64,000 nt of DNA from Escherichia phage p000y, in the sequence record MK047718.1; one strand, given 5' to 3'. Positions 10,337 through 59,337 of this stretch are shown one piece after another. How positions within the stretch are numbered: the first letter of the stretch is position 1; each line of letters starts with the position of its first letter. The notes below the pieces were generated by a model. That model had not been told where the DNA came from, did no database searches, and saw only the letters and a program-made list of their open reading frames with translations. A program made the translations under genes and the position numbers.

Positions 10337-10337
10337 C

Positions 10338-10361
10338 AAAAATGGGAGACCGAAGTCTCCC
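10338..10361 (-). terminator. Terminator hairpin GGGAGACTTCGGTCTCCC + T-run after gene 35
   Basis: Perfect 7-bp GC stem with TTCG loop followed by T-run on minus strand. Confidence 0.6.
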
Positions 10362-10366
10362 TAAAT

Positions 10367-18676: not shown

Positions 18677-18698
18677 GGGAGACTTCGGTCTCCCTTTT
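18677..18698 (+). terminator. Terminator GGGAGACTTCGGTCTCCC + TTTT after gene 32
   Basis: Perfect hairpin plus T-run. Confidence 0.65.
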
Positions 18699-18725
18699 GA
18701 GTATCTGTAAATTGCCGAAAAAGTT

Positions 18726-18760
18726 GTTTACTTCTTCCCTGGATGTATTAGTATAGACAT
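18726..18760 (+). promoter_or_regulatory. Early promoter (GTTTAC ... TATTAGTATAG)
   Basis: GTTTAC box and AT-rich -10 upstream of ORF 18784. Confidence 0.45.
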
Positions 18761-33908: not shown

Positions 33909-33930
33909 GGGAGACTTCGGTCTCCCTTTT
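33909..33930 (+). terminator. Terminator GGGAGACTTCGGTCTCCC + TTTT
   Basis: Perfect hairpin and T-run. Confidence 0.65.
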
Positions 33931-33963
33931 GTGCGTTTAGGGCAGAAAAAGTTTAAAAAAGAT

Positions 33964-33994
33964 GTTTACTCTCCTGTAGGATGTGTTACTATAG
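33964..33994 (+). promoter_or_regulatory. Early promoter (GTTTAC ... TGTGTTACTAT)
   Basis: Upstream of ORF 34035. Confidence 0.5.
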
Positions 33995-56061: not shown

Positions 56062-57345
56062 TTATTCATCTATAATAATTTTAGGCAATTTAACACCGAG
56101 TAAAACAGACAAGTCTGAACGTCCCGCCATTTTATCCATGTCCCCGCCATCAATTACTCTCGCTTCTTTTTCATCTTTTGCTACTGTGTAAGGATTTGCT
56201 GATAAAGCATATCTAACCAATAATCCAATAGACGGTTGCAAGCTTTCCGGATCAACTACAACTTTAAATGCACCAACATGTTCCGGGTCATCTAAATCTA
56301 CTCCTTCAGTGTATGGAGCATAAAAGATGGACCCTACAATTTCTTTTTCGCCGATATTTTCTACAACACCCACAATAACATAATCTAATGGACTGTTGGT
56401 ATCGCAGTAAAGAGGTAATCCATTTGCCAAGAATCCATAAGCATTTTGTGAAAGATACTTGTCATCTTCTGGCTTATGTTTTAACCAACCAGAAGCAGCA
56501 AGAATAGCAGCTGCACGAGCTGAGGCTACACAAAACGTTGCAGTATAAGTTGTCTCTTTTTGAATGTGTGATACCATTTCACACACCATTCGATATAATG
56601 AACGACCTGCTTCTGGAGCGGATGCATAGCTCAAGTCAATAAATCCGGTGTCAGTAATTCCAGTAACTTTATAACGTTTCGATACAGTAATTAAAGACTG
56701 AAGAATATCTTTATTAATTTCATCAGCCATTTCAGTAGCAAGCAAATCTTCTAAGAAGTTAGGGGCATCAAATCCATTCGCTTCCAAATCTTGCGCTAAT
56801 TCAACCGTGAGGCCAGTTTTAAGTTTACGAGATTTGACTGAAGTTTGCCATTTATTAATCTGGAATCTTGCATCAGAAATTTCGCTATCAGAGCTTTCAA
56901 ATTTGCTTGTTACCGCTGCATCTGAAAATAACCGTACCTTTAAATGAACGACTGCAATCTGAAGAGCTAATTCTAGATCACTTTCTTGAATATCTGCAAA
57001 TGGTGTATCTTCTAACACTTTATAGACGATATTATTATATTTGAAAAAATCACCTTTATTTAGTGTGACTTTTGATTCTTCTGTGAGCTCAGTAATTTTT
57101 TCTCGGTCTACATATCCAACTTCGCCAGCATAAGTAGCACCGGTTTTAAATGTGAATTCGTTATCTGGGTTAAGATATTTGATACCATAAAAAGCAGCAA
57201 CAGGTTGATTAGTTCTTTGTGTTGCTACAATGTCAGAATATACTAATTTAGTCGTAGCGCGAGTCAAAGCAACGAGATTTGGGCGACCAATTGAGTTGCT
57301 AGTAGACGTTGTAGATTCACGCAATAATTTTTGGATTTTACTCAT
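56062..57345 (-). CDS. 24: gp24 head vertex protein
   Basis: 427 aa (T4 gp24 is 427 aa); shares the gp23-like fold (FQINKWQTS, LAQDL). Confidence 0.9.
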   Translation of the reverse strand: MSKIQKLLRESTTSTSNSIGRPNLVALTRATTKLVYSDIVATQRTNQPVAAFYGIKYLNPDNEFTFKTGATYAGEVGYVDREKITELTEESKVTLNKGDFFKYNNIVYKVLEDTPFADIQESDLELALQIAVVHLKVRLFSDAAVTSKFESSDSEISDARFQINKWQTSVKSRKLKTGLTVELAQDLEANGFDAPNFLEDLLATEMADEINKDILQSLITVSKRYKVTGITDTGFIDLSYASAPEAGRSLYRMVCEMVSHIQKETTYTATFCVASARAAAILAASGWLKHKPEDDKYLSQNAYGFLANGLPLYCDTNSPLDYVIVGVVENIGEKEIVGSIFYAPYTEGVDLDDPEHVGAFKVVVDPESLQPSIGLLVRYALSANPYTVAKDEKEARVIDGGDMDKMAGRSDLSVLLGVKLPKIIIDE

Positions 57346-57372
57346 TGCATTTTTTCCTTATGTGATATAGAT

Positions 57373-57380
57373 TATTTATA
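57373..57380 (-). promoter_or_regulatory. Late promoter TATAAATA for gene 24
   Basis: Plus strand TATTTATA about 28 nt upstream of gene 24 start. Confidence 0.55.
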
Positions 57381-57386
57381 AAGATT

Positions 57387-57416
57387 GTTTACAACGTATT
57401 TGGTATGTGATACTAT
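57387..57416 (+). promoter_or_regulatory. Early promoter (GTTTACA ... TGTGATACTAT)
   Basis: Upstream of ORF 57447. Confidence 0.5.
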
Positions 57417-57446
57417 AGACTTATCAACTACAGAGGAGTAAACAAA

Positions 57447-57716
57447 ATGACTAAAGCACGTTTCTTACGAGATACTTTAAAAGTTCTGGAAGCTGAAGCA
57501 GTTAAGTTAGTAGAAAAATATGGTGCAAAAGTTAATGGTAATGCCTTCAACAAAGTATGGATGAAAGTTGATTCTGAAGCTCGAGCTAAAGGTTATTGGG
57601 CCACTGATAAACTTGCATCATTCAAAAACAAAGATGGTTCTCCGGCATATGTCCAAGAAGGTATGCCTAATTGGCAAAATATTTTGAAAACTTACATCGA
57701 AATTGCACAGAAATAA
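57447..57716 (+). CDS. Hypothetical protein (89 aa) in the gene 24-23 intergenic cassette
   Basis: ORF with RBS GAGGAG and its own early promoter. Confidence 0.55.
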   Translation: MTKARFLRDTLKVLEAEAVKLVEKYGAKVNGNAFNKVWMKVDSEARAKGYWATDKLASFKNKDGSPAYVQEGMPNWQNILKTYIEIAQK

Positions 57717-57720
57717 AACC

Positions 57721-57744
57721 AAAAATGGGAGACCGAAGTCTCCC
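57721..57744 (-). terminator. Terminator GGGAGACTTCGGTCTCCC + T-run after gene 23
   Basis: Perfect hairpin and T-run on minus strand just past the major capsid gene stop. Confidence 0.65.
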
Positions 57745-57768
57745 AAAATAAGATTTAATCAATTAAGA

Positions 57769-59337
57769 TTAGATGCCTTTTACATATACACGGCGGAAGT
57801 AAGCGTTCTTACCAAGGCTGTTCAGGATAGATGGCATACCGGACTGGATGCGAGCACCTGGAGCCTGCAGGGAACTTTCAGCAAACGGGTTAACACCGAT
57901 ACCGTAACGAGTTTTAAAGCCCATTACCGGTTGGAAGTTCTTAGGATCGGAACCACGCAGTGGGGTAAGTGCAACGTAAGGAGCATAGTAAATACCTGCA
58001 TCCATTTCGTTAGCGCCTTTGTAACCAACGGTGAAGTAATCCTGTTTAGCATACTGGTCGATGTATACGCGGTATTTACCACCAAGTACACCGGCAAATA
58101 CAGATTTAGTAGTGTCGGTATTAAAACCAGAAGCCAGGCCCTGTGCAGCGTAAGAAATACCAGTATCAACTGAAGCCAGTACGTTAACTACGTTACGGGA
58201 AGCGATAATGAAGTTACCTTCACCACGTCCGGTTTGACGAGCAATTTCAACTGCTTCTTTATCAATCTGGAACAACAGAGATTTAAAGCTTTCACCGGCC
58301 CAACGAGCACCACGGATATCAATCGGGTCCTGGAAGTCAAATACACCGGCTTTAGAACCCGGAGTCAGGGTCATACCAGATTTACCAACCTGTGCAGAGT
58401 AGTTAATCCAATCAACAACTTCACGGTTGATTTCTAGCATAATTTCCGTAGCCAGAATACCGCTCAGTTCAGCATCAGCATCCATACCGTGTACTGCACG
58501 GAGGTCTTGTGCTAATTCGATAGAGTAAGCAGCTTTCAGCTGGCGAGATTTAGCTTCGATAACTTGTTTATCGATACGGAAGCCCATTTCATTCCATGGG
58601 TTATCGGTAGAACCGTTGAAACCTTCCTGGAGTTCAGCGATAGAAGTAGCCATACCTTCAGCGATTTCTACCAGTGCACCAGCTTCCATTTGTTTCTTAA
58701 CTTCTGCATCTAATTTAGCTGCATCAGTTGCACCAGAATCAAGTGTTACGACAGCAGAAGCTTGCAGATATACAGTACCAGTTTCTTGGAAGAAGTGAGT
58801 ATAGATATCACCTACAACAGTAGTAGTGTCAGCAGCCAGAGCTGGGAATTTCTTAGCAGCACCCTGACCAGAGAACATCGCGTCTGGGGCATACATCGGA
58901 TGGAAAGCTTCTTTAGCGCCAGCAGCGATAGGGTCTTTACCATATACTGCACGGAGAGCAAATACCTGACCGGTAGGGCTGTTCATAGGCTGAACACCAC
59001 AAATATCAAAAGCGATCAGATTAGGAATAGCACGACGAACCATACCCATAACTGCCGGCCCAATTTGGGTTACTGCACCAGAGGTTTGACCTGCTGCGAT
59101 GTTCTGAGCATTATAACCGTGGTCACCACCAATTTCAGCTTCGGTCAAGAAAGAACCAAATGCCTGAGCGATTTTCTCGTCTTTATATTCAGGGGATACT
59201 TCGAAATCTTTTTCCTGGTTTTCGAAGATTTTAGCGATAATAGCCTGCTTGCTATTAGCGATTTCCGGCAGGCCTTCACCTTCCAGCAGTTCTTTCCATT
59301 TGTCTACGAGCTGAGCTTTAGTTTTGATAGTAGTCAT
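57769..59337 (-). CDS. 23: gp23 major capsid protein
   Basis: 522 aa; HK97-fold T4 MCP; size matches. Confidence 0.95.
   Translation of the reverse strand: MTTIKTKAQLVDKWKELLEGEGLPEIANSKQAIIAKIFENQEKDFEVSPEYKDEKIAQAFGSFLTEAEIGGDHGYNAQNIAAGQTSGAVTQIGPAVMGMVRRAIPNLIAFDICGVQPMNSPTGQVFALRAVYGKDPIAAGAKEAFHPMYAPDAMFSGQGAAKKFPALAADTTTVVGDIYTHFFQETGTVYLQASAVVTLDSGATDAAKLDAEVKKQMEAGALVEIAEGMATSIAELQEGFNGSTDNPWNEMGFRIDKQVIEAKSRQLKAAYSIELAQDLRAVHGMDADAELSGILATEIMLEINREVVDWINYSAQVGKSGMTLTPGSKAGVFDFQDPIDIRGARWAGESFKSLLFQIDKEAVEIARQTGRGEGNFIIASRNVVNVLASVDTGISYAAQGLASGFNTDTTKSVFAGVLGGKYRVYIDQYAKQDYFTVGYKGANEMDAGIYYAPYVALTPLRGSDPKNFQPVMGFKTRYGIGVNPFAESSLQAPGARIQSGMPSILNSLGKNAYFRRVYVKGI

Follow-up and report, generated by a model that had tools for sequence, protein, structure and literature searches.

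Between the late genes 23 and 24 of Escherichia phage p000y (MK047718.1), an RB69-like T-even phage of the genus Mosigvirus, lies what is probably, at roughly three chances in four, a monocistronic early accessory-gene cassette that runs antiparallel to both of its neighbours. The window analysed here is a stretch of 64,000 nucleotides of this genome. The anatomy of the cassette, its conservation, the purifying selection on its product and its modular replacement emerge from sequence comparison; early timing and the role of the protein are what we infer. The cassette is an ordinary case of the known swappable phage gene cassette, with an uncharacterised protein, and indicates no new principle. 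What it offers is a natural series of states at one precisely bounded site (empty, ORF, ORF plus segD, segD alone) within the most conserved part of T-even genomes. This series is a handy model for the entry of accessory cassettes and homing endonuclease genes, and for the ways in which they combine and replace one another.

A megablast search with the 501 bases around the ORF found phages vB_Eco_mar005P1, moha and FL18 to be 100% identical and APCEc01 to be 99.8% identical, and the best-matching phages belong to the genus Mosigvirus, the RB69 group of T-even phages (Straboviridae/Tevenvirinae). The orthologue in APCEc01, APCEc01_119, is annotated as a hypothetical protein; its neighbours are gp23 (major head protein) on one side and gp24 (capsid vertex protein) on the other, and past gp24 comes rnlB. 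As described in the first-pass annotation, an 89-aa ORF stands on the strand opposite to the late head genes and between genes 24 and 23. The locus comprises the following features, in window coordinates:

56062-57345, minus strand: gene 24 (gp24, head vertex protein), which flanks the exchangeable module on its left and is conserved
57373-57380, minus strand: gene 24 late promoter, an exact match to TATAAATA, 28 nt upstream of the gp24 ATG
57387-57416, plus strand: predicted T4-type early (sigma-70) promoter with -35 GTTTACA, a 17-nt spacer and a TG-extended -10 TACTAT
57433-57438, plus strand: Shine-Dalgarno sequence GAGGAG, 8 nt before the ATG, as read from the sequence
57447-57716, plus strand: coding sequence of the 89-aa ORF (from the ORF list; PHROG 6003), antiparallel between gp24 and gp23
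57726-57745, minus strand: predicted intrinsic terminator of gene 23, TGGGAGAC-UUCG-GUCUCCCA followed by a U-run
57769-59337, minus strand: gene 23 (gp23, major capsid protein), which flanks the exchangeable module on its right and is conserved

Some further observations concern the surroundings of the cassette. Downstream of it, phages of the Dhakavirus and Gaprivervirus types have a tandem pair of gp24 paralogues (loci L003, L004, L012 and L024). The rnlB gene (RNA ligase 2), which adjoins gp24, is annotated in two pieces in DalCa (L005 2814-3818) and phiR1-RT (L008 2807-3798), which suggests disruption or frameshifts. An imperfect 22-nt palindrome within the ORF, TTCTCCGGCATATGTCCAAGAA at 57638-57659, is probably there by chance. 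Megablast reported a second place per record, and the idea of a second gene copy was discarded, the repeated terminator hairpin being the most likely source. Elsewhere in the window there is just one more strong match, a 30-nt copy (10337-10366), and therefore there is no sign of a second gene copy.

The first-pass annotation had given the ORF an early promoter of its own, and the two elements it quoted are present on the plus strand: GTTTACA at 57387-57393 and TGTGATACTAT at 57406-57416. A promoter scan scores TTTACA-17-TACTAT with TG before the -10 (57388-57416, plus strand), and transcription is predicted to start near 57423. A single consensus match means little, as four were found in 1.1 kb versus 3.2 expected. 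It is as a class that the early promoter is convincing, far above chance: the pattern GTTTAC-N16-19-TANNAT occurs 15 times in the window (2269-57416) versus 1.3 expected, all 15 on the plus strand, its putative timing being read from the consensus. This set is strictly strand-biased, and GTGATACTAT is common to several of the 15 copies. As in T4-type early promoters, a -35 GTTTAC, a spacer of about 17 nt and a TG-preceded -10 of the form TAnnAT face the ORF with its ribosome-binding site, and the element fits TTTACW-N17-TAYWAT, the PST/T4 consensus (Comeau et al. 2014, PMC4122927). Orthologous promoters of RB69 have been predicted earlier (early Pe:109605 and late Pl:109573; Nolan et al. 2006, PMC1524935, supplement). 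The same paper describes novel ORFs that sometimes stand singly between conserved genes, often with early promoters (PMC1524935).

The regulatory elements have been retained beyond the closest relatives. The -35, the -10 and the ribosome-binding site are kept across Mosigvirus, Dhakavirus, metagenomic relatives and T4. All ORF-bearing loci share TATTTATAAA(A)G..GTTTACA, a TG-extended -10 and GGAG, with Gaprivervirus differing in its -10 region and its longer leader, and GGAG is kept at equal spacing to the ATG in all homologous loci. The initiation region is unstructured (MFE -1.4 kcal/mol). The late promoter box of gene 24 is one of 19 TATAAATA sites in the window, versus 7.3 expected, and is kept in every compared locus, empty sites included. 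The early -35 element begins only 7 nt from this late box on the other strand, so that the two promoters stand back to back; a search for a late promoter on the plus strand at the locus found none. We propose that host sigma-70 RNA polymerase would start at the early promoter (57387-57416) soon after infection, and that the short unstructured leader and the strong ribosome-binding site would lead to translation of a basic, soluble 89-aa protein. Transcription of gene 24 would begin anew at its late promoter (57373-57380), right beside the early one.

The hairpin downstream of the ORF had been taken for a bidirectional terminator belonging to the cassette. A perfect 8-bp hairpin does occupy 57726-57745 (plus strand TGGGAGAC-CGAA-GTCTCCCA), but in place of a GC-rich hairpin with a U-run on both strands we found one that the consensus scan calls terminator-like on the minus strand only. 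On the minus strand the loop is UUCG within C(UUCG)G, the tail is the T-run ATTTTTGGTTTTATTT and the predicted fold reaches -17.4 kcal/mol versus -13.7 on the plus strand, where the hairpin is followed by AAAATAAG without a U-tract. Because the terminator call, the UUCG loop, the T-run and the stabler fold all fall on the minus strand, we assign the hairpin to gene 23 as its terminator and not to the cassette; it is present in empty-site phages also. The U-run (57710-57725) overlaps the last codons and the stop codon of the ORF. The corresponding hairpin of Gaprivervirus has A and T runs on both sides, and a search of Rfam across the locus returned nothing near threshold. On its own strand, the hairpin would end the late gene 23 message as an intrinsic terminator. 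The ORF transcript, convergent with gene 23, would gain the same hairpin at or near its 3' end, where, judging by the sequence, it would form without a U-tract.

The core of this hairpin recurs in the genome. An identical 18-nt element, GGGAGAC-(UUCG/CGAA)-GUCUCCC, is present in four copies in the window versus 0 expected. Two of these copies, those at 18677 and 33909, precede early promoters by 30-40 nt, and both make up a complete PeSL (promoter-early stem-loop) in the sense of Arbiol et al. (2010, PMC2839356) and Comeau et al. (2014, PMC4122927):

10344-10361: hairpin copy
18677-18694: hairpin copy
33909-33926: hairpin copy
57727-57744: hairpin copy, downstream of the ORF
18677-18754: complete PeSL-type element with hairpin, early promoter (GTTTACT...TAGTAT), ribosome-binding site and plus-strand gene
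33909-33992: complete PeSL-type element with hairpin, early promoter (GTTTACT...TACTAT), ribosome-binding site and plus-strand gene

In each of the four copies the UUCG orientation follows the strand of the gene upstream.

A comparison of the 23-24 intergenic region across relatives had been suggested as a check on the locus, and it brought out several states of the gap:

Empty, about 85 nt, with the late promoter box and the CGAA-loop hairpin only: Tequatrovirus DalCa, Karamvirus EnC15, Klebsiella phage Roth20
ORF alone: the p000y window, Dhakavirus VR5, Gaprivervirus VR20, three metagenomic T-even contigs
ORF and GIY-YIG endonuclease gene, 3 nt apart: KAW3E185 (Mosigvirus), IME341, vB_EcoM_005
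segD alone, on the strand opposite to genes 23/24: T4
Other nuclease genes: Tegunavirus phiR1-RT, Acinetobacter phage Octan
Longer, about 740 nt, and containing a small ORF on the same strand: RB49-type phage kvi

The presence of segD in this interval of T4, mentioned in the first-pass annotation, is thus borne out. The endonuclease that accompanies the ORF is 53% identical to T4 SegD (E 3e-83), and the loci with both genes (KAW3E185, L029 2501-3430; also L018 and L021) carry a Dhaka-type ORF allele. By sequence, ORF and segD apparently form a two-gene early operon behind one promoter. Upstream of segD in T4 (L002 2916-3000, reverse strand) we found TATTTATAAAG, TTTACA-N17/18-TATAAT, GGAG and the ATG, and this promoter and ribosome-binding site stand where the window ORF has its early promoter. 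A review had stated that no segD-specific promoter was identifiable in T4 (Edgell et al. 2010, PMC2988022). The alignment of the two loci suggests that T4 segD may be served by the conserved early-type promoter.

These states bear directly on how the cassette came to be where it is. The junction had been read as a recombination hotspot that captured a different cassette in place of segD. Its description as a hotspot stands, in that the site is sharply bounded and has seen gain, loss and exchange; the capture in place of segD does not, as the ORF is common in three genera and co-occurs with segD in KAW3E185, IME341 and vB_EcoM_005. A recent capture of the cassette as an alternative to segD, complete with its own bidirectional terminator, would agree with the finding of segD at the same position and on the same strand in T4, with the variability of the site among T4-like phages and with the sharp break of identity at the cassette borders. 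We nevertheless consider it unlikely, since members of the ORF family that are 30-38% identical share this site across three genera, their promoter and ribosome-binding site architecture being kept, since ORF and segD stand together in some phages, and since the hairpin is found in empty sites also and is here terminator-like on the late strand only. Judged from the loci compared, the ORF is the usual occupant of the gap in Mosigvirus, Dhakavirus and Gaprivervirus. It is therefore no one-off capture, and segD is an addition or a replacement, not an alternative. This three-genus distribution may be compatible both with an ancestral origin and with early horizontal spread between genera.

The close association with segD in some genomes could also mean that the ORF is part of the segD mobile element, as cargo, helper or modulator, and that loci with the ORF only are remnants after segD loss. 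In KAW3E185, IME341 and vB_EcoM_005 segD indeed follows 3 nt past the ORF stop codon behind a common promoter, and a homologous promoter precedes segD in T4. Most members of the family, however, are without segD, which 3 of the 16 sampled loci carry, and the distant homologues in other phage families have no adjoining endonuclease gene; ORF and segD are moreover unfused, with no co-variation evident. An origin as part of the segD element is on this account improbable.

Direct evidence on the exchange of cassettes comes from pairs of close relatives. The window and KAW3E185 share 98-100% nucleotide identity through most of gp24, up to the gene start, and 93-100% in gp23, up to the stop codon. 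Across the cassette, from about 57379 to 57790, identity drops to about 45% (0.43-0.60), and KAW3E185 is longer by 660 nt that carry segD. In LF82-9, gp24 is 98% identical to that of the window and the ORF only 32% identical. Both contrasts support the junction as a site of recombinational cassette exchange. Measured from GTTTACA up to its stop codon, the cassette spans about 330 nt and fits exactly into the space that separates the late promoter from the hairpin; the empty site of about 85 nt contains these two elements and no other. As we reconstruct it, the cassette would be an old non-essential resident of the gap in the Mosigvirus, Dhakavirus and Gaprivervirus lineages, exchanged as a block via homologous recombination in the near-identical head-gene flanks and in common regulatory motifs; such an exchange would sometimes take segD along.

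That the ORF is non-essential follows from its fate in several relatives. The RB69 reference (L011 8292-8532) has two frameshifts, a 1-nt insertion amid a mismatch cluster and a 1-nt deletion, and its broken ORF is annotated as two tiny ORFs, ORF188c and ORF189c; it is either a pseudogene or the result of errors in the old sequence. In mogra the ORF is split, and neither T4 nor the empty-site phages hold a homologue. The absence from T4 also disposes of the concern that the ORF might be a named T4 gene that had gone unrecognised.

The cassette codes for a protein of 89 aa and 10.1 kDa with a pI of 9.6, which from its sequence is soluble and has neither cysteine nor a hydrophobic segment. It matches PHROG 6003, a family without known function, over its full length (E 2.1e-45; protein 1-89 versus profile 1-90). 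Where synonymous sites are unsaturated, dN/dS is 0.05-0.14: VR5 and the L017 member differ by 16 synonymous and 6 non-synonymous changes, and the window versus L012 gives 0.14. An AlphaFold2 model built from a 14-sequence alignment reached a mean pLDDT of 90.2 and a pTM of 0.75. The predicted topology comprises helix 3-25, helix 31-48, a beta hairpin (52-60/66-70) and helix 76-88. Residues K3, F6, G31, N32, N35 and Q70 are invariant family-wide, and an N-G-N motif is placed at the turn joining helices 1 and 2. From the dN/dS values and the confident compact model, the protein is real and under strong purifying selection.

This selection on the amino-acid sequence also weighs on the idea that the transcript is itself the product of the cassette, tuning head-gene expression either as antisense into the 3' end of gene 23 ('anti-late' RNA) or by occlusion of the gene 24 late promoter. 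Such a function would suit the plus-strand hairpin without a following U-tract, the mere 7 nt between the early -35 and the late TATAAATA, and the promoter kept in T4 despite segD in place of the ORF. We think it has little to recommend it: apart from the dN/dS values and the compact fold, there are homologues in unrelated phages, away from head genes, and empty-site phages express genes 23 and 24 without the cassette. A protein-coding accessory gene accounts for the locus better.

The earlier remark that the protein has no recognisable motifs stands, as no Pfam, NCBIfam or PADLOC family was found at threshold. The nearest Pfam entry was DUF4859 (17.9 bits, E 0.003, against a gathering threshold of 22.6 bits), and Pfam gave no match to a GIY-YIG or HNH nuclease domain of the kind that would mark a homing endonuclease. 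NCBIfam and PADLOC returned nothing for the window protein and sub-threshold noise only for two homologues. PDB sequences, searched with a profile, yielded no match at E<0.01; fold searches gave no informative neighbour, and our literature search for RB69ORF188c/189c and VR7 gp190 no report. With no informative fold neighbour, function can be approached only indirectly. JGI names one 90-aa member, P0006 (L012 3001-3273), 'NADPH-dependent curcumin reductase CurA', which is clearly a mis-annotation.

Homologues outline how far the family has travelled. A tblastn search places it in 239 phage records, which fall into about 120 with an identity of at least 80% and 119 with 30-38%. Position and orientation are unchanged in Dhakavirus VR5, Gaprivervirus VR20 and three metagenomic T-even contigs; a scan of IMG/VR returned only nine loci, of Dhakavirus and Gaprivervirus. 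A profile search of 1.84 billion representative proteins gave nine matches. Two giant proteins, P0022 and P0024, were set aside as artefacts, each score being the sum of 9-11 sub-threshold matches (2-12 bits each) to Ig-like repeats. Genuine distant homologues are P0021, in an array of small ORFs, and P0023, which adjoins a GpJ-type tail tip gene. P0021 is most closely related to a protein from 'Acinetobacter phage ABPH49', a Vequintavirinae record, and the P0023 contig is distantly related to 42-kb Serratia siphoviruses. The metagenomic loci of P0021 and P0023 (L026 and L027) each show the gene behind a sigma-70-like promoter of its own, with one hairpin upstream and another downstream. The ABPH49 copy has the downstream hairpin, and no promoter was picked out upstream of it. 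An endonuclease gene adjoins none of the distant homologues in other phage families. Taken together, the family appears to be horizontally spread, in similar self-contained units in unrelated phages.

The distribution likewise speaks against a minor head or virion protein, which we judge highly improbable. Its position among head genes and a very weak PHROG match to 'internal virion protein' (E 0.09) are all that would point there, against the opposite strand and early-type promoter, the lack of a plus-strand late promoter at the locus, homologues in non-structural contexts and dispensability in RB69, mogra and T4. As to what the accessory protein does, our guess, made with low confidence, is a host-directed role: the protein would bind a host factor or nucleic acid and so serve takeover or counter-defence, which suits a product that is small, basic, putatively early, dispensable and horizontally spread among Enterobacterales phages. 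A bolder version, which we put forward tentatively, is that the family is an unrecognised host-directed effector with a new small fold that moves between unrelated Enterobacterales phages as a self-contained promoter-ORF-hairpin unit and, in T-even phages, is from time to time swept or replaced at the 23/24 gap by SegD-associated recombination. If so, the effector family could comprise, for example, an inhibitor of a host defence or of a takeover target. As a family predicted to be well folded, it merits inclusion in anti-defence and host-takeover screening lists.

Among known systems, PeSLs offer the first comparison. Like a PeSL, the cassette has an early sigma-70-type promoter of the PST/T4 PeSL consensus followed by a ribosome-binding site and start codon, its promoter (15 copies) and hairpin (4 identical copies) are genomic repeats that supply short homologies, and it lies exactly at a replacement or indel boundary between close relatives. 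Unlike a PeSL, it has no stem-loop just upstream of its promoter: the plus strand at 57340-57400 folds with -3.6 kcal/mol (z +0.63), and a search for an inverted repeat upstream of the early promoter found none. Its sole hairpin comes after the ORF and is oriented with the opposing late gene, and the cassette is situated inside the conserved head module and not in a hyperplastic region. At best it is a degraded or half PeSL, a category of Comeau et al. (2014, PMC4122927), that uses the terminator of the opposing gene.

The segD locus of T4 is a second comparison. It occupies the same site in the same antiparallel orientation, with the late promoter, an early-type promoter and the ribosome-binding site upstream and a CGAA-loop hairpin downstream, and in some Mosigvirus and Dhakavirus genomes segD directly follows the ORF. 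T4 segD codes for a free-standing GIY-YIG homing endonuclease, however, whereas the ORF is unrelated to SegD and has no nuclease motif. RB69ORF188c/189c is the orthologous locus, with about 97% DNA identity and the same early and late promoters predicted; the ORF is broken in the RB69 reference and intact in the window.

A further parallel is with the morons of lambdoid phages, a concept reportedly due to Juhala and Hendrix. The definition of a moron comes from temperate phages, with expression typically from the prophage, whereas the cassette described here resides in a virulent phage behind a predicted early lytic promoter. In its build it nonetheless resembles them, being by sequence a promoter-ORF-hairpin unit between adjoining conserved genes that is present in some relatives and absent from others. 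It shares with them, too, that it is dispensable and has homologues in unrelated phages within similar self-contained units.
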